Numbered from the stretch's first letter, positions 3,887-56,306 are shown. The stretch is DNA of 64,000 nucleotides from Parvularculales bacterium (GCA_036881865.1 JBAJNM010000004.1:3736-67735), one strand, 5' to 3'. Numbers and translations are program-made. Notes: generated by a model not told the origin, from the letters alone.

Positions 3887-4591
3887 CTAGTTACCTCCGG
3901 AAATAACCGGCGGCAAAGCCGGAATATCAAGTGCCCGATGTATCATCTCAGAAGCGCCGCCCACCAGATTATCAAGACGGTTTGGGTCAGCGGTTCTTGT
4001 AGCCTCCCCCACCGCCTGCGCTATAGACCGCATAAGGGTCTGCCCCAGTTGTTTGCGGGTTAAAGGCTTAATAAAATCACCTACATTGTTTAGCTCAAGA
4101 GGTGGCATATCCACAACAATGTCACTATTTGTTTCCTCAGATGAGATAATCGACAAAGAAGCATCCTTCATGAGAAACTTGTCAATGACGTATAATGATG
4201 AACCCTGCGCATCCCACTGATCTATGTTCTGAATGACGGCTTGAAAATTACTACCCTCTTCCGTTATCTCCAATAAAAGACGCGGAGCTTCTATTTTAAT
4301 CTGCTTTAGATGTTTAACAGACCGGCCATCAGCCGTCTTTTTTCTTTCCTCATCAATATTTAAAACAACAGTAAGGCTGTCCGCAATGATAAGACCACCA
4401 CCCGCAAAACCTGCCGGATCTCCCATATAAAAATCACTGAGAACAAGCCGCCCTTCTCGAGCGCTTATATCTGCAGAGCTGATAGTAGCCACAAGCCCTG
4501 CCATAGCCAAGGCTTCTCTTTCTATAGCATTGCTAATATAGGCATCCGGCACAGCAATGCCCAAAACAAATAACATCAAGCGTTCCATCAT
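3887..4591 (-). CDS. Periplasmic LolA-like / outer-membrane lipoprotein-sorting-like protein (uncertain)
   Basis: 234 aa with an N-terminal signal peptide (MMERLMLFVLGIAVPDAYIS) and no clear catalytic motif. The family assignment is a guess. Confidence 0.35.
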   Translation of the reverse strand: MMERLMLFVLGIAVPDAYISNAIEREALAMAGLVATISSADISAREGRLVLSDFYMGDPAGFAGGGLIIADSLTVVLNIDEERKKTADGRSVKHLKQIKIEAPRLLLEITEEGSNFQAVIQNIDQWDAQGSSLYVIDKFLMKDASLSIISSEETNSDIVVDMPPLELNNVGDFIKPLTRKQLGQTLMRSIAQAVGEATRTADPNRLDNLVGGASEMIHRALDIPALPPVISGGN

Positions 4592-4648
4592 AGATTTCTC
4601 ATAACAACCACTTTAAGATGCCGTAAGCGAATTAGAACAAAATACAGA

Positions 4649-4676
4649 TTGAACACAACGGTTTCAATGTTATAAT
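4649..4676 (+). promoter_or_regulatory. Sigma70-like promoter (TTGAAC-16 nt-TATAAT) upstream of the metal module
   Basis: Read directly from the sequence. The -10 element ends about 7 nt before the ORF start, so the leader is very short. Confidence 0.4.
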
Positions 4677-4682
4677 CCGAAT

Positions 4683-5036
4683 ATGGCTGTTATGAGGACC
4701 ATATCGTTGCTGAGTATTTGCTTCGCCCTGCTTGTTAGCAATGTGACGAACGCAGCTACTGCTTGCCATATGGCAGATATAAACCAGACAACGACTGAAA
4801 TACAGATCAACCACAGCGATATGGATATGCCCTGCCATGAAATGGCAAATAATGAAGAGCAAAATTCTTCTAACTGCGATCAATGCGGTTGCCAACATTG
4901 CGTGACTATTAACGCATTACCACCATACCAATCGGTTCAAGATATTGTTGCGTCCAGAGCGAAGCCCTACGCCACACAAAGCATTTACTCATGCCATCCT
5001 GAAGGCATACTCCAACCACCTAAACATATTTCCTAA
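4683..5036 (+). CDS. Secreted Cys/His/Met-rich small protein, putative periplasmic metal-binding protein
   Basis: 117 aa with a signal peptide. The mature part is rich in C/H/M (CHMAD, DMDMPCHEMANNEE, NCDQCGCQHC, SCHPEG). It has faint HExMxN-like similarity to the SilE/PcoE type. Confidence 0.5.
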   Translation: MAVMRTISLLSICFALLVSNVTNAATACHMADINQTTTEIQINHSDMDMPCHEMANNEEQNSSNCDQCGCQHCVTINALPPYQSVQDIVASRAKPYATQSIYSCHPEGILQPPKHIS

Positions 5037-5107
5037 CTGTTCACGCCACAGGCGTGTGTTATCGGTAGTGCCTAGCACTGCCTAACAATCACTAACATTA
5101 GGAGATA

Positions 5108-5755
5108 TTGATGAGATTTTTTCTAAATATTGTCTGCATCGCCATGCTATGGGGTTCATCCGTAGCGATCGCACGCCCGGTATCTTATCCGGGTGGATGG
5201 ACAGTGATGCAAAACAATAACACAGGCGCACATGGCCTCTATGTTCATTACTCGCCTACCGCCAAATATTCCATTGGTTACAAGGCGGAATATTGGCGCG
5301 ATGAAAAGTGGCACTCTCATAGCGCACAATTGAACTATCTAGCCAAACGCTGGAATGCACCAACATCCCAAGCCAACCTATACCTAAAAACAGGTGCAGG
5401 TGTTGCCTATAGTAATTTTGGTTCATTTGATGGTGAAACAGAGCCTACCGGATTTGTGGGCATCACCTTTGATTGGGAAGATCGGCGTTATTTCAGCAGC
5501 TATGAAACCCGTGCCTACTATGCCAGAGATATAGACAAATTCTTCGTGCAGAAAGCACGGGTGGGCATTACTCCCTATATCGGAGATTACGGCGACATTC
5601 ATACATGGCTGATGCTACAGGTTGATCATACCCCCGGCAAAGACAATAAAATCACCGTCACGCCGCTCGTACGGATGTTCAAAGGTGAATATCTTGTCGA
5701 GGCTGGAATTAGCGATGATGGCGACGTTCTATTTATCTGGACAGTCAGATTATAA
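5108..5755 (+). CDS. Secreted protein, putative small outer-membrane beta-barrel
   Basis: 215 aa with signal peptide MMRFFLNIVCIAMLWGSSVAIA. It shows an alternating hydrophobic/polar strand pattern, is aromatic-rich, and its C-terminus (LFIWTVRL) looks like a terminal strand. Confidence 0.45.
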   Translation: MMRFFLNIVCIAMLWGSSVAIARPVSYPGGWTVMQNNNTGAHGLYVHYSPTAKYSIGYKAEYWRDEKWHSHSAQLNYLAKRWNAPTSQANLYLKTGAGVAYSNFGSFDGETEPTGFVGITFDWEDRRYFSSYETRAYYARDIDKFFVQKARVGITPYIGDYGDIHTWLMLQVDHTPGKDNKITVTPLVRMFKGEYLVEAGISDDGDVLFIWTVRL

Positions 5756-5765
5756 GGAGAAAATC

Positions 5766-6149
5766 ATGAAAACTTTAATCATAAAATTTGCATTTATAAC
5801 CATATTTGCAATCGCGCCGGTATGGGCTGGTCATACTGAACATAGCCACGATCATGCCGAACATGGTCACAATAACGTATCGGCAGAGAAACCTGTTACC
5901 GGAACAGAAGGTGCTTCTTGTAAGGATATTACCAACATCAAAGTTAACGGCCTTGTTTGCGATTTTTGTGCCCGTGCTATAGAAAAAGTTTTTTCTAAGC
6001 GCGACGAGGTAGCTAGTATCAATGTTGATCTGGATAATGGCTTTGTACACGTAGTGATGCGGTCAGGCAAAACCATTGATGATGATACGCTCACTCAACT
6101 TATCACTGATTCTGGTTACAATGTCACCTCAATCGAGAATCAGTGCTAG
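5766..6149 (+). CDS. Periplasmic heavy-metal-associated (HMA) domain protein, MerP-like, with a His-rich N-terminal extension
   Basis: A good RBS (AAGGAGAAAATC) precedes the ATG. The protein has a signal peptide, a His-rich stretch (GHTEHSHDHAEHGHNN), then an HMA fold whose metal loop is NGLVCDFCARAIEKVF. The ORF-track entry 5622..6149 is a 5' over-extension of this gene. Confidence 0.65.
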   Translation: MKTLIIKFAFITIFAIAPVWAGHTEHSHDHAEHGHNNVSAEKPVTGTEGASCKDITNIKVNGLVCDFCARAIEKVFSKRDEVASINVDLDNGFVHVVMRSGKTIDDDTLTQLITDSGYNVTSIENQC

Positions 6150-6150
6150 T

Positions 6151-6546
6151 ATGACAAATGAAACAGAAAACTACGGCATAAAGCATACGCTCATACCTAC
6201 GCTTAGTCTTTTCACCTCTGTTGGCACGTTAGTATGTTGCGCTCTTCCAGCATTATTTGTAACACTGGGGGCCGGTGTAGCCCTTGCCGGTTTGGTAAGC
6301 TCAGCTCCGTGGCTGATAGCCTTATCACAGTATAAAGGATGGACGTTTGGTATCTCCGGCGCAATGATTCTGCTAGCAGGGCTTATGCATTGGAGCGCAC
6401 GCAATATTCCATGCCCGATTGATCCTAAGCAAGCCGAGGCTTGTACACGGTTGCGCAAGATCAATGGTTGGATATATTGGAGTTCAGTCGCCGTATGGAG
6501 CGTCGGTTTCTTCTTTGCCTTTATTGCCATCCATATATTTTATTAG
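6151..6546 (+). CDS. MerT-like inner-membrane metal transporter
   Basis: 131 aa with three predicted TMs. It has a Cys-Cys pair in TM1 (LVCCALPALFVTLG), a Cys pair in the TM2-TM3 loop (CPIDPKQAEAC), and a C-terminal FY. All of these match the Tn501 MerT architecture. The start is taken at the ATG (SASMTNETEN) just after the MerP-like gene. Confidence 0.65.
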   Translation: MTNETENYGIKHTLIPTLSLFTSVGTLVCCALPALFVTLGAGVALAGLVSSAPWLIALSQYKGWTFGISGAMILLAGLMHWSARNIPCPIDPKQAEACTRLRKINGWIYWSSVAVWSVGFFFAFIAIHIFY

Positions 6547-6607
6547 GCGTAATTTATAACACTCCTCAAACCCTTTTTTGGCTAAGCCTTGGGAGAATTT
6601 TTGATGA

Positions 6608-6694
6608 TGGTGCGGGCGAGGGGACTTGAACCCCTAAACCCTAATGGGTTACGGATTTTAAGTCCGCTGCGTTTACCAATTTCGCCACGCCCGC
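6608..6694 (-). tRNA. tRNA-Leu, anticodon UAA, with a long variable arm and encoded CCA
   Basis: The reverse complement reads GCGGGCGTGGCGAAATTGGTAAACGCAGCGGACTTAAAATCCGT...GGTTCAAGTCCCCTCGCCCGCACCA. It has the cloverleaf with a CU-UAA-AA anticodon loop. Confidence 0.85.
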
Positions 6695-6837
6695 AACAAT
6701 GTCTTATTCCATAAAGAAGTAGCACTTACGTCACAATACCTGGACCGTAACGCTCGTCACAACATTTCTCCCTTTTATCGCAAGCACTACCCTACTGCGC
6801 AAGAAAAACACTCAACAAAAAATGAGGCAACCAAAAA

Positions 6838-6868
6838 AAGCGGGGCTCCGAAGAGCCCCGCTTTCAAA
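6838..6868 (-). terminator. Rho-independent terminator (GC-rich hairpin GCGGGGCTC-tccg-GAGCCCCGC flanked by A/T runs; possibly bidirectional)
   Basis: It lies immediately 3' of the small secreted-protein gene on the minus strand, where a T-run follows the stem. Confidence 0.6.
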
Positions 6869-6892
6869 AAAACAAATGCTATGAGCGTAATA

Positions 6893-7141
6893 TTAGCCCT
6901 CAAGACCCTGCCACACAGGCCAGCAGTTATTGCCAGCACGAGCCGCTAGTTTCTCCTGAGCGTCCTTGGCATCAGAGCCCTGAGATACCTGGACATAATC
7001 ATCGGCACCCGTGCACCACACATAAAATTGATGGTTACCACTCTCGGACATAGCATCAACATTGGAGTTCAAGCCATAGGCCACACCCGCCATCATCATG
7101 ATGCCACTAACCAGCCCTGCAAAAATCGATAGTTTTTTCAT
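6893..7141 (-). CDS. Small secreted protein of unknown function (about 82 aa, two Cys)
   Basis: The start is the ATG at MKKLSIFAGLV, preceded by a GGGAGA RBS. The ORF-track entry 6893..7243 over-extends the 5' end. The protein has a signal peptide. Confidence 0.5.
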   Translation of the reverse strand: MKKLSIFAGLVSGIMMMAGVAYGLNSNVDAMSESGNHQFYVWCTGADDYVQVSQGSDAKDAQEKLAARAGNNCWPVWQGLEG

Positions 7142-7357
7142 TACATAGTCTCCCTGTACACAATCTCCTCCACCGGAGACAACACACACCCTGACATCCA
7201 ATATTGACTCATAGCAACATTGACTAGGGGCAACATTAATCACGAGCCCTACTTTAGCGCCCTATTTCCGCTCTGCCAACGCTTTTTCTAGGATGGAAGC
7301 ACTCTATACCTCCGGATAGGGGTCTGTGTTGCATTTTTGCACCATCCCCCTCATAAT

Positions 7358-7509
7358 GGTAATTATATACTTTAGTAGCCAAGAACTGTCATTTTAGCGC
7401 AGTTTTCCGCCATTAAAACGAAGTGATCGTTTCAAAATTTTCTACAGGCGAAAACCGGCGAAATACTGCGGATATTTGTAAATTCCATCCACTAAAGTAT
7501 ACAATTACC
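7358..7509. repeat. Imperfect 19-bp inverted repeat pair (GGTAATTATATACTTTAGT ... ACTAAAGTATACAATTACC) flanking about 114 bp of intergenic DNA
   Basis: Read directly: 18 of 19 positions are complementary. It could be a MITE-like element or a paired regulator site upstream of the cinA-like gene. Confidence 0.4.
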
Positions 7510-8430: not shown

Positions 8431-9156
8431 ATGCGCTTTGACCCTCCCCTTCAGTCTGCCCGACTAATACGCCGCTACAAGCGGTTTTTGGCCGATATCA
8501 AGTTTGACGATGGTACTACCTCTACAGCCCATTGCCCCAATCCCGGCTCTATGATGGGGCTAGCCGAACCCGGCGTTGAAGTATGGGTGTCAAAAAGTAC
8601 AAACCCCAAACGCAAACTAGGTTGGAGTTGGGAGTTGGTAGCGACGAGTGTGCTCTCTGACGACACACCGTCTGTTCTGGTGGGCATTCATACCAGTCGC
8701 GCCAATGATCTGGCAAAGGAGGCTATTGAGGCAGGCCACATAACAGAGCTCAACCGCTATGACACCCTCCACCGGGAGCAACGCTATGGCGAGAACAGCC
8801 GCATTGATTTGTTATTGGAAAACAGCAAAACAGACGACAATGCCTGGGTTGAGGTCAAGAGCGTTACTCTATCGCGTCAAGCAGGTGTTGCGGAGTTCCC
8901 CGATGCGGTAACCAGCCGTGGAAAAAAACATTTAAGCGAGTTGGGTCGTCTGGCACGAGAGGGAAAGCGCGCCGTCATGCTTTATGTTATTCAGAGGAAT
9001 GATTGCACCAAAATGTGCCTTGCGAATGATATTGACCCCACTTATGCCAAAGCAGCGCAAGAGGCTACGCAAGCAGGCGTTGAAATGCTTTGTTATGATT
9101 GCTACATAACGCCTGATGACATCACTCTCCATAATGCGATACCCTTGATCATATGA
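8431..9156 (+). CDS. sfsA: Sugar fermentation stimulation protein A (SfsA family nuclease-like)
   Basis: 241 aa. The N-terminus RYKRFLADI...CPNPGSM is the typical SfsA start. Confidence 0.8.
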   Translation: MRFDPPLQSARLIRRYKRFLADIKFDDGTTSTAHCPNPGSMMGLAEPGVEVWVSKSTNPKRKLGWSWELVATSVLSDDTPSVLVGIHTSRANDLAKEAIEAGHITELNRYDTLHREQRYGENSRIDLLLENSKTDDNAWVEVKSVTLSRQAGVAEFPDAVTSRGKKHLSELGRLAREGKRAVMLYVIQRNDCTKMCLANDIDPTYAKAAQEATQAGVEMLCYDCYITPDDITLHNAIPLII

Positions 9157-9165
9157 GGAACGAGT

Positions 9166-9987
9166 ATGACGTATACGGCTGTTGACGAAGATACTTCTGC
9201 ATACAACACCGGACAGGTAAAACTGTATGGCCCGGAGTGTTTTGCGGGTATGCACGCTGTAGGGCAGTTAGCAGCCGCAGCACTGGATGTGCTGAAGGAT
9301 GAAGTTAAGCCAGGTGTCACGACGGATTATCTTGACCGCCTTGTATACGATTACGCTCTGGCACATGAGTGTATCCCTGCGCCTCTTAATTACAGGGGTT
9401 ATACAAAATCTATTTGCACGTCCATCAATCATGTGGTTTGCCATGGGATTCCCAGTGATCGCATTTTGCGGGAGGGAGATATTATCAACATAGACGTAAC
9501 CCTCATCAAGGATGGTTGGCACGGTGACACTAGTCGCATGTATTACGTGGGCGATGTGCCCCGTCGCGCCCGGCGCCTTGTGGAGATAACCTACAAGGCC
9601 ATGATGCGCGGCATCGCTGAAGTAAAGCCCGGGGCAACCTTAGGCGACATTGGGGCTGCCATTCAGGATTATGCTGAAGGAGAACGTTGTTCTGTTGTGC
9701 GCGATTTTTGCGGTCACGGATTAGGGCTTGTTTTTCATGATGCGCCCAACATTTTGCATTATGGCGTCCGGGGTCAAGGTCTTACCCTTCAGGAGGGTAT
9801 GTTTTTTACCATCGAGCCTATGATTAACCTTGGCAAACCGGGAGTTAAACTGTTAAAGGATGGCTGGACAGCCGTTACCCGTGACCGCTCTTTGTCTGCG
9901 CAGTTTGAACATTCTCTCGGTGTCACCCAAGATGGTGCTGATATCTTTACACTATCTCCGGCAAACCAGCATTGCCCTCCCTATTAA
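9166..9987 (+). CDS. map: Methionine aminopeptidase, type I
   Basis: 273 aa with MetAP metal-ligand blocks (HGIP, DINIDVT, FCGHGLG, FTIEPM). Confidence 0.9.
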   Translation: MTYTAVDEDTSAYNTGQVKLYGPECFAGMHAVGQLAAAALDVLKDEVKPGVTTDYLDRLVYDYALAHECIPAPLNYRGYTKSICTSINHVVCHGIPSDRILREGDIINIDVTLIKDGWHGDTSRMYYVGDVPRRARRLVEITYKAMMRGIAEVKPGATLGDIGAAIQDYAEGERCSVVRDFCGHGLGLVFHDAPNILHYGVRGQGLTLQEGMFFTIEPMINLGKPGVKLLKDGWTAVTRDRSLSAQFEHSLGVTQDGADIFTLSPANQHCPPY

Positions 9988-55352: not shown

Positions 55353-56306
55353 ATGCCAGAAACTCAGGGCCAACACGCTAAAGTGATCATTCTCGGCGGA
55401 GGGCCAGCCGGATATACCGCCGCAGTCTACGCCGCCCGCGCCATGCTATCTCCCCTTTTGGTACAAGGTCCGCAACCGGGTGGTCAGATGACCATAACTA
55501 CGGACGTAGAAAACTATCCCGGCTTTGCAGACGTCATACAAGGCCCATGGCTCATGGAGCAAATGGAAGCCCAAGCCCGACATATAGGAACTGTACTCGT
55601 CAACGATACCATCACACAAGTGGATTTAACCCGTCGCCCCTTCCACCTCACAGGAGACAGCAATAATTTTTATACAGCCGATAGCCTGATTATCAGCACT
55701 GGCGCTCAGGCTAAATGGCTCGGCGTTGAGGGAGAAGAGCGGCTTCGCGGCTTTGGTGTTTCGGCTTGTGCCACCTGCGATGGTTTCTTTTATCGGGACC
55801 GTGAGGTCATTGTTGTAGGAGGCGGCAATACAGCCGTAGAAGAAGCGCTCTTTCTTACTCGCTTTGCCAGCAAGGTTTATGTGGTTCATCGTAGAGATAG
55901 TTTGCGGGCGGAACGTATACTTCAAGAGCGTTTGTTTGCTCATGAAAAAGTCCAAATTATCTGGAACCATATTGTTGAAGAGATTACCGGCGAGGATAGT
56001 TCTACCGGCGTTCAGGGTGTCGTGTTGCGCCATGTCACAAGTGGTGAGCGTCAGACCATACCCGTCCATGGCGTCTTTGTTGCCATCGGCCACCAGCCCT
56101 CCACGGGTTTGTTTGCCGGCAAACTTCTCATGACCGAGAATGGCTATCTGGTAACTAAACCTGATTCTACCGCCACCACCATTGAGGGGGTCTTTGCCGC
56201 CGGCGACGTGACTGATGAGATTTATCGTCAGGCGGTGACAGCTGCAGGTGCAGGGTGCATGGCTGCCTTGGATGCCGAACGGTTTCTGACAACACAGACG
56301 GGCTAA
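55353..56306 (+). CDS. trxB: Thioredoxin-disulfide reductase
   Basis: Redox-active CATC motif (SACATCDG) plus FAD and NADPH glycine motifs. Confidence 0.9.
   Translation: MPETQGQHAKVIILGGGPAGYTAAVYAARAMLSPLLVQGPQPGGQMTITTDVENYPGFADVIQGPWLMEQMEAQARHIGTVLVNDTITQVDLTRRPFHLTGDSNNFYTADSLIISTGAQAKWLGVEGEERLRGFGVSACATCDGFFYRDREVIVVGGGNTAVEEALFLTRFASKVYVVHRRDSLRAERILQERLFAHEKVQIIWNHIVEEITGEDSSTGVQGVVLRHVTSGERQTIPVHGVFVAIGHQPSTGLFAGKLLMTENGYLVTKPDSTATTIEGVFAAGDVTDEIYRQAVTAAGAGCMAALDAERFLTTQTG

Follow-up and report, generated by a model that had tools for sequence, protein, structure and literature searches.

In mercury resistance operons of the Tn501/Tn21 type the gene of the membrane protein MerT precedes that of its partner MerP, a secreted, CxxC-containing HMA protein, and merR, merA and merD are linked to the pair. 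Another kind of metal operon opens with a CutF-like gene, whose product has fewer than 150 amino acids, a Sec signal, a Cys motif and a C-terminal Pro-Pro (PP) sequence, and which is followed after a short intergenic region by the metal genes (Ozturk et al., PMC9973294). Binding of copper to the exported nascent CutF chain slows the ribosome, and the stem-loop hiding the Shine-Dalgarno (SD) sequence of the next gene unfolds; CutF itself is degraded upon export and acts only in cis (PMC9973294). Cys-rich leaders of this type go with copper genes and His-only ones with nickel/cobalt genes, and not all CutF-like leaders are copper-specific (PMC9973294). Leaders of the CruR type govern some TonB-dependent receptors: in Bordetella, arrest at CruR's RAPP sequence is relieved by copper and a TonB-dependent copper importer is shut off (PMC9426467), and the arrest by CruR has been demonstrated (PMC12992588). 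Recent work still calls the pathways of bacterial copper acquisition poorly characterised (PMC12914433). Here we describe a four-gene locus (genes 1 to 4) in a 64-kb stretch of DNA from a Parvularculales bacterium (GCA_036881865.1, JBAJNM010000004.1:3736-67735). This stretch is referred to as the window; coordinates are counted from its first nucleotide, and it is the scope of all window-wide negative results. With slightly better than even confidence, we interpret the locus as a horizontally spread cassette that brings a thiophilic metal, most likely Cu(I), into the cytoplasm and is self-regulated post-transcriptionally. Unlike the mer operons it has no merR, merA or merD beside it, and it adds an outer-membrane barrel and a leader peptide.

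Gene 4 (6151-6546, plus strand) codes for a predicted inner-membrane protein of a MerT-related family with three transmembrane segments (TM1 to TM3). The AlphaFold2 model was that of a helical membrane protein with a mean predicted local distance difference test score (pLDDT) of 81.5 and helices at residues 11-38, 54-83 and 92-130. TM1 contains a CC pair (C29-C30), and two further Cys residues (C88-x9-C98) lie in the positively charged TM2-TM3 loop, which is read as cytoplasmic because it is rich in Arg and Lys. When 72 diverse members of the family were aligned (mean column identity 39%), C29, C30, P33 and C98 were invariant and C88 was present in more than 90%. A first-pass annotation of the locus, made from the sequence, had credited gene 4 with the full MerT architecture. 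This was correct for the three transmembrane segments, the CC pair of TM1 and the Cys pair of the loop, all of which are common to gene 4 and the MerT proteins of the Tn501/Tn21 mer operons, but no MerT profile matched the window protein. PF02411 was matched below threshold by 25 of the 72 members (best E 3.5e-6). When the diverse family alignment was compared by hhalign with MerT, represented by Tn501 MerT (checked to be 100% identical to annotated plasmid merT genes), the probability was 94.2% (E 1.1e-7) over nearly the full length, and CC was aligned to CC and the loop Cys pair to the loop Cys pair. An alignment of close homologues only gave a MerT probability of just 9.7%. A Foldseek search of the PDB with the model returned nothing meaningful, and a search of PDB sequences with the family profile returned only chance matches to bacteriorhodopsin. 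By these sequence comparisons gene 4 is a distinct branch of the MerT superfamily with the same Cys architecture, and not MerT itself, in which the loop motif is C-x5-C instead of C-x9-C.

The family is large. One search returned more than 1383 homologues with 66-82% identity, and among 1.8 billion representative sequences the family formed approximately 800 clusters at 50% identity; none of the members listed had a precomputed Pfam domain. NCBI lists the exact protein as hypothetical, from a Parvularculales metagenome-assembled genome (MAG); a separate look-up by exact sequence gave no record. Homologues, where named, are called 'hypothetical' except for one 'small integral membrane protein'. 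Gene 2 has 987 homologues. The four open reading frames (ORFs), which had been annotated as co-directional genes and were confirmed as such, are therefore judged from their sequence conservation to be real genes and not chance ORFs. All motifs quoted in the first-pass annotation were also found: LVCCALP and CPIDPKQAEAC in gene 4, LVCDFC in gene 3, MPCHE and CDQCGCQHC in gene 1.

Gene 3 (5766-6149, plus strand) codes for a metallochaperone of the HMA fold, predicted to be periplasmic. In agreement with its earlier description as a secreted HMA protein, it has a signal peptide and matched PF00403 above the gathering score (31.9 bits, cutoff 24.8). The MerP equivalog model TIGR02052 was not reached (21.5 bits, cutoff 92.55). 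The best NCBIfam matches were CopZ models, the top one scoring 41.1 bits, below its cutoff of 91, and the closest PDB sequences were all Cu(I) HMA domains (ATP7A/B, CopZ, CopA). The metal loop GLVCDFCA, which stands in place of the GMTCxxC of MerP, was near-invariant among 79 homologues. The window protein also carries the His-rich N-terminal tail GHTEHSHDHAEHGHNN and an extra Cys pair, C52 and C127. Both features, the latter as C52 with a C-terminal Cys, were present only in subsets of the 79 sequences, so the His-rich extension, correctly noticed in the window, is a property of some homologues only. As far as can be told from sequence, gene 3 is an HMA protein of its own subfamily. The HMA gene precedes the MerT-like gene, which confirms the earlier remark that the order is inverted relative to merT-merP.

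Gene 2 was originally called as 5108-5755 on the plus strand; the ATG at 5111 is preferred as start codon (5111-5755) because of the SD sequence AGGAGA at 5100-5105. The AlphaFold2 model (pLDDT 89.9) had a signal peptide, with cleavage near AIA/RPVSYP, and 12 strands forming a closed antiparallel barrel that matched solved barrels. The model makes us confident that gene 2 encodes a small 12-stranded outer-membrane beta-barrel, as had been supposed when the locus was first annotated. The fold class is clear from the model and the family is not: the top structural matches were autotransporter beta-domains, no Pfam domain was assigned, OMP_b-brl_2 was matched below threshold (E 0.0049), and a profile search of PDB sequences found no solved relative. 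Identity to KdgM/NanC and to PcoB/CopB was just 7-8%. No match to gene 2 was obtained in plasmids. Where homologues are named they are 'hypothetical', with the exception of one labelled ExbD. In alignments of close homologues, mean column identity was 64-68% for genes 2 and 4.

Gene 1 (4683-5036, plus strand) codes for a protein of 117 amino acids with a Sec-type signal peptide, judged from the sequence by eye to be cleaved near TNA/A, and a Cys near the mature N-terminus. It contains the motifs MPCHE and CDQCGCQHC and ends in QPPKHIS, with PP as residues 112-113. In this family mean column identity was 22%, and the parts that are kept are the Cys/His motifs and the C-terminal PPKxxS. In an alignment of 41 sequences (A4) P109, P110 and C67 were invariant, and C26, C48 and H49 were conserved in more than 90%. 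Among 61 distinct gene-1-like sequences PCH or DCH occurred in 53 and the CxxCxC-type cluster was also kept; the C-terminus usually read (R/Q)PPKx(I/L)S directly before the stop codon, and in 48 sequences PP was separated from the stop codon by exactly four residues. A profile search gave only nine matches, unnamed or 'hypothetical'. CopL_fam (NF033807) was matched below threshold by 19 of the 41 aligned members (best E 1.1e-7), CzcI by two, and DUF2946 (PF11162) by three at E 0.26 or weaker; the window protein itself scored 15.9 bits (E 0.015) against CopL_fam, short of the cutoff of 40. The features used in PMC9973294 to define CutF-like proteins, i.e. size, N-terminal signal, PP, a short gap to the next gene (74 nucleotides between genes 1 and 2), a Cys/His motif and an SD-shielding stem-loop, were all found. 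Gene 1 thus appears to code for an exported regulatory leader peptide of the CutF/CopL type. Its first description as a SilE/PcoE-like binding protein was rejected, as no profile in Pfam or NCBIfam supported it.

The stem-loop connects the end of gene 1 with the ribosome binding site of gene 2. Folding of the segment 5010-5125 paired the anti-SD arm AUAUUUCCUAA (5026-5036, plus strand), which is made up of gene 1's His-Ile-Ser codons and stop codon, with UUAGGAGAUAU (5098-5108, plus strand), which contains the SD sequence AGGAGA and would thereby sequester it. The pairing was present in both the minimum free energy and the centroid structure (z -5.27, equalled by none of 200 shuffled sequences). 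The stem encloses two inner hairpins within a spacer (5037-5097, plus strand) that contains no terminator-like site on that strand, and the spacer/stem region matched no Rfam family. The same outer stem was found in nearly all loci that have gene 1, and in all of 12 phylogenetically diverse loci folded separately (z -1.7 to -4.6). The register was tested in an alignment whose sole anchors were the stop codon and the SD sequence's GGA core. In the proposed register 62.7% of cells were paired, compared with 35-46% for slid registers, and the covariation score was 0.203 versus about 0.10. At the stop codon the middle base covaried with the base two positions 5' of GGAG (A-U 16, G-C 14, G-U 3, counts that ignore phylogeny), so that UAA goes with UUAGGAG and UGA with UCAGGAG. 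The last residues of gene 1 are dictated by the anti-SD sequence. The Pro-Pro-Lys codons (5016-5024, plus strand), a putative slowing or arrest motif by analogy with the prolines at the C-termini of CutF (PMC9973294) and CruR (PMC9426467, PMC12992588), lie four codons 5' of the stop codon. Since the anti-SD arm begins six nucleotides downstream, a ribosome with the second Pro in its P site would mask or open the greater part of the arm, and this geometry would explain the fixed spacing between PP and stop.

The sigma70-like promoter reported upstream of gene 1 was borne out: a sigma-70-type promoter with 10 of 12 consensus matches lies at 4649-4676 on the plus strand, with the -35 element TTGAAC at 4649-4654, a 16-nucleotide spacer and a TG-extended -10 element TATAAT at 4671-4676. 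A promoter was considered comparable if its -10 element matched in at least five of six positions and ended 4-9 nucleotides before the in-frame start of gene 1, with a -35 element at 16-18 nucleotides and at least nine of 12 matches overall. Such a full promoter was present at 24 of 61 distinct loci from several phyla and at 0.6% of random ATGs. Because the window's -10 element ends just six nucleotides 5' of the ATG at 4683 and this geometry is enriched, gene 1 is probably translated from a leaderless mRNA. An operator for Zur or another regulator 5' of gene 1 was sought and rejected: only the half-site-like AATGTTATAAT, which overlaps the -10 element, was seen, and no palindrome was conserved across loci.

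The cassette is widespread. In a genome scan with one genome per species at least 548 relatives of gene 4 were confirmed, and 80 loci were kept for synteny work. These came from Alphaproteobacteria ('Rickettsiales', Micavibrio, Hyphomonas, Sphingomonadaceae, Rhodospirillales), Gammaproteobacteria (Cellvibrionaceae, Oleiphilaceae, Marinicella and the isolate Marinibactrum halimedae), Dadabacteria (also given as 'Thermodesulfobacteriota'), Spirochaetia and Bdellovibrionales. Essentially every locus with enough sequence had genes 2, 3 and 4 in the same order and tightly packed, so the block is conserved across several phyla. A gene-1-like ORF was located upstream in 65 of the 78 loci with enough sequence; L085 had an atypical variant only. 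Most carriers are marine and include streamlined genomes of 1.5-2.3 Mb, and at least one of them is in culture (M. halimedae NBRC 110095). The word 'orphan' first applied to the module is thus misleading: it is a fixed cassette of several hundred species-level genomes and not a degraded mer operon. MAG UBA3002 holds two complete cassettes (L017 and L019), and extra copies of genes 3 and 4 occur in other genomes, at L035 (12483-15731) and L036 (12102-12655), so that paralogous modules coexist.

The absence of MerA and MerR from the window, stated in the first-pass annotation, was confirmed, as tblastn with verified Tn501-type MerA, MerR, MerD and MerE found no convincing match there. The sole MerA-like similarity (55812-56273, 26% identity over 164 residues, E 0.02) is probably due to an ordinary flavoprotein disulfide oxidoreductase. 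None of 87 loci had a merA within 8 kb, and only two of them had a MerR-family gene, which was distant from the cassette. Among 150 proteins flanking 45 diverse loci, together with eight large ones that were also scanned, no family recurred more than three times; COX15/CtaA was seen twice. The cassette therefore travels alone, without a dedicated transcription factor, ATPase or detoxifying enzyme. Horizontal spread is suggested by the 69% identity of gene 4 between phyla, by the lower G+C content and by nearby tRNA or tmRNA genes. The G+C content is 42-46% over approximately 3900-7400 and 49-52% in the flanks, and a minus-strand tRNA-Leu(taa) gene occupies 6608-6694 with its 3' end toward gene 4, both as first annotated; this tRNA was the sole known RNA family detected by Rfam in 4500-6800. 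At five of the 45 diverse loci a tRNA or tmRNA gene was found within approximately 300 nucleotides of the cassette (6608-6694 in the window, 6201-6276 in L019, 4798-4885 in L036, 8451-8539 in L073 and 4990-5371 in L075), compared with a chance expectation of about 1%, roughly estimated from typical tRNA gene density. This proximity hints at island-like insertion.

Some neighbourhoods have features of their own. In L003-L005 (8554-16396), the three loci that had gene calls, a GldC-like gene and an operon for alternative complex III (molybdopterin subunit, NrfD, ActD, cytochrome c) run toward the cassette in convergent orientation; other Dadabacteria loci were likened to these by the spacing of genes 1-4 alone. 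In one alphaproteobacterial lineage an MFS-acyltransferase-AMP-binding fusion protein (MFS, major facilitator superfamily) of approximately 1150-1210 residues is encoded upstream (L043 2163-5609, L063 2265-5840, L065 1517-5155, L068 3130-6570), a lineage-specific synteny that is probably unrelated to metal handling. In the 'Rickettsiales' MAG represented by L006/L008 (8407-13558) the cassette is convergent with znuA, which is followed by a zur-like gene of the Fur family, znuC, znuB and a TonB-dependent receptor gene that is split. In the window, the low-G+C stretch contains two flanking minus-strand ORFs, 3887-4591 (234 amino acids, divergent from gene 1) and 6893-7243 (116 amino acids, secreted-looking), and the minus strand has a strong terminator-like hairpin at 6836-6865, just 3' of the shorter ORF.

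Relatives of gene 4 also occur on plasmids. On the Vibrio alginolyticus plasmid NZ_CP119336 an unannotated ORF at approximately 7000-7340 is 44% identical to gene 4. It lies between the gene of a GDCCVxC (seleno)protein and that of a periplasmic HMA protein, whose annotated coding sequence begins only 3' of the ORF, with a MerR-like regulator gene divergent; the group is inside a copper-resistance island (P-type ATPase, CopB, multicopper oxidase, cupredoxin). This pair differs from the cassette in its T then P order, its MerR-type regulator and its GDCCVxC protein, and it has no barrel, leader or merA. On plasmid 2 of Variovorax sp. SRS16 two 'hypothetical' genes (6630-7306) encode a periplasmic HMA protein and a MerT-like protein, ordered as genes 3 and 4 and overlapping by a few bases, without a barrel or leader gene; pairs on Variovorax megaplasmids likewise have the HMA gene before the MerT-like gene and no merA. 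The Xanthomonas euvesicatoria plasmid pXpT39.1 carries at 9001-9177 an unannotated fragment that is 41% identical to the C-terminal half of the gene 4 protein. It has a UvrD-like helicase gene on one side and a czc/cus operon of the resistance-nodulation-division type on the other, and is approximately 6 kb from copLAB. This fragment may be a pseudogene remnant.

The following mechanism would accommodate these observations. Metal would enter through the small 12-stranded outer-membrane channel encoded by gene 2 and be bound in the periplasm by the HMA chaperone of gene 3 on its CDFC loop, assisted in some lineages by the His-rich tail. The chaperone would hand the metal to the CC pair in TM1 of the gene 4 protein, and Cys-to-Cys ligand exchange would pass it to the cytoplasmic C-x9-C pair and then to cellular acceptors. 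The homology to MerT and MerP is the reason for proposing an inward relay for a thiophilic metal; the cassette holds no energy-coupling component. Gene 1 would play no part in transport, but would act as a leader peptide made from a leaderless mRNA. As the SD sequence of gene 2 is paired with the final codons of gene 1 and its stop codon, genes 2-4 would be translated only while a ribosome sits at the end of gene 1. Metal bound to the exported Cys/His motifs would alter the dwell of the ribosome at PPK, and through the dwell time the periplasmic metal level would set the output. The identity of the metal, the inward transport and the regulatory sign we infer.

Cu(I) is the best candidate that the sequences offer for the metal, because Cys-rich CutF-like leaders accompany copper genes, relatives of gene 1 match CopL, gene 3 is most closely related to Cu(I) domains and the 44%-identical cousin of gene 4 is in a copper-resistance island of Vibrio. 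All the evidence is consistent with the earlier proposal of a soft metal other than mercury, probably copper, and the module may acquire copper for cuproenzymes. Acquisition, i.e. repression by the metal, is favoured because no sink or efflux partner is linked, because the carriers include streamlined marine genomes, and because scavenging would be well served by a dedicated outer-membrane inlet and by a His-rich capture tail where one is present. Several points weigh against this interpretation. The window's gene 4 protein had no match at E ≤ 1 in Pfam and NCBIfam, including PF02411 and the MerT models, part of an outcome that the first-pass annotation had named among those speaking against its own reading. 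Similarity of HMA sequences is a poor guide to metal specificity. A gene-1-like ORF was missing from 12 of the 78 loci, PPK is to our knowledge not a known strong arrest motif, and both anchors of the register test are sequence-constrained for other reasons, while the stop-codon covariation was counted without regard to phylogeny. The precedent CutF is metal-induced, not repressed, and this, like the usually metal-inducible MerR-type regulator of the Vibrio cousin, fits metal excess better. The His-rich tail of gene 3 and the single znuA-zur-znuCB adjacency, the only zinc link found (one of 45 diverse loci), point to zinc. Finally, for every member of the cassette the metal, the direction and the sign are deduced from genes and models.

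These points lead to other explanations that must be weighed against metal acquisition. If the cassette were induced by excess periplasmic metal, it would clear Cu(I), Ag(I) or a similar ion into the cytoplasm for an unlinked CopZ, CopA or glutathione, in parallel with MerT/MerP feeding MerA or with CopCD within cop resistance operons. Gene 1 resembles CutF in the short gap, the SD-shielding stem-loop, the Sec signal and the basic residues flanking PP, and copper switches the gene downstream of CutF on (PMC9973294); the copper-resistance surroundings of the Vibrio cousin, with its MerR-family regulator, and of the Xanthomonas fragment agree with this. Clearance of excess metal is given substantial weight, but seems to us less likely than acquisition, since no detoxifying or efflux partner was linked at the 45 diverse neighbourhoods, the cassette is often met with in streamlined marine genomes (1.5-2.3 Mb), where metal excess is improbable, the outer-membrane inlet and the His-rich tail fit scavenging better, and import of a toxic metal without a coupled sink would be costly. 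Import of a borderline divalent metal, chiefly Zn(II) and possibly Cd, Co or Ni, in place of Cu(I) would make sense of the His-rich tail, present in the window and in several lineages, of the Asp within the CDFC loop and of the 'Rickettsiales' MAG in which znuA, the zur-like gene, znuC, znuB and the TonB-dependent receptor gene adjoin the cassette, and the metal range of CutF-like leaders would permit it (PMC9973294). However, the genes in that MAG are convergent and not co-transcribed with the cassette, the tail is missing from many homologues whereas the Cys ligands do not vary, every best match of gene 3 is a Cu(I) domain, the leaders that go with nickel/cobalt genes are His-only and not Cys-rich (PMC9973294), and no convincing palindromic Zur box was seen. 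We consider zinc or a similar metal quite improbable.

The role of gene 1 can also be seen differently. It might be a plain secreted binding protein rich in Cys, His and Met, and the stem an ordinary device of translational coupling without sensing: there is a signal peptide, the Cys/His motifs are conserved, DUF2946 was not convincingly matched, and masking of an SD sequence by the 3' end of the upstream gene is known in ordinary coupled operons. On that assumption it would be hard to understand why conservation is confined to the Cys/His motifs and PPKxxS (22% mean column identity, versus 64-68% among close homologues of genes 2 and 4 and 39% among diverse members of the gene 4 family), why the last residues are set by the anti-SD sequence and why the PP-to-stop spacing is fixed, which has no obvious role in a mature protein; CutF, moreover, is degraded on export and is only cis-acting (PMC9973294). 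A mere binding function is given as little credence as zinc import. The homology of gene 4 to MerT and of gene 3 to MerP/HMA proteins might be taken to mean Hg(II) uptake for a MerA encoded elsewhere in the genome, and the paired membrane Cys residues with a periplasmic CxxC protein recall reductant relays, so that genes 3 and 4 might form a thiol-redox relay. Both are very improbable. Neither merA nor merR is in the window and no merA was near the cassette at the 87 loci, gene 3 scored far below the MerP cutoff, and the gene order, barrel and leader are unlike mer operons; the HMA fold, which is a metal-binding and not a thioredoxin fold, speaks against a redox relay.

For copper acquisition the cassette is a concrete and compact candidate in several hundred species-level genomes, among them those of abundant uncultured marine lineages. 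It would mean that the MerT/MerP transport principle is reused outside mercury resistance and that the recently found CutF/CruR class of metal-sensing nascent peptides extends to a new type of operon. The clean geometry of the RNA, with the stop codon in the anti-SD arm, the fixed distance from PP to stop and the leaderless appearance, makes it an attractive arrest-peptide model. There is also a consequence for annotation: genes 1, 2 and 4 are nearly always 'hypothetical' where named, and on the Vibrio plasmid the gene 4 relative is omitted entirely. The cassette was not found described in literature on MerT-like/HMA/outer-membrane cassettes, on DUF2946 with MerT, or on Dadabacteria and copper or mercury, coverage of which was incomplete. 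Neither this set of genes as a whole, nor the families of genes 2 and 4, nor a leaderless switch with the stop codon in the anti-SD arm was encountered in the searchable literature, which is not proof of novelty. The parts taken singly are all of known kinds, namely the MerT superfamily, the HMA domain, 12-stranded barrels and CutF/CopL-like leaders. Tentatively, and with less than even confidence, we propose that the cassette represents a new class of copper acquisition, an envelope relay of channel, HMA chaperone and MerT-like thiol-relay permease, independent of TonB, ATP and proton-motive force, widespread in streamlined marine bacteria and controlled by a leaderless arrest-type leader with the stop codon in its anti-SD switch.

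The leader is close to CutF (Rhodobacter capsulatus cutFOG), CopL (Xanthomonas) and CruR (Bordetella), copper-sensing leader peptides of the DUF2946 type, which like gene 1 are small exported proteins with a Sec signal, a Cys motif and a C-terminal PP, and the stem between genes 1 and 2 resembles the stem-loop by which the SD sequence downstream of cutF is shielded. It differs from them in the motif, (R/Q)PPKxxS instead of RAPP, in the location of the anti-SD inside the coding sequence including the stop codon, and in the seemingly leaderless mRNA. As controlled genes, the combination of a barrel with an HMA and a MerT-like protein is absent from the lists in two papers on CutF/CruR-type leaders. 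NCBIfam also contains a model, NF045683, with the name MerT/CopZ fusion-like heavy metal transport selenoprotein. The copper importers CcoA (MFS), CopC/CopD-YcnJ and the TonB-dependent receptors of the OprC/NosA/BfrG type, for which the same role as that proposed here applies, belong to wholly different families. In contrast to these known importers, the cassette has no TonB box, ATPase or MFS component, and its transport would proceed by thiol ligand exchange.

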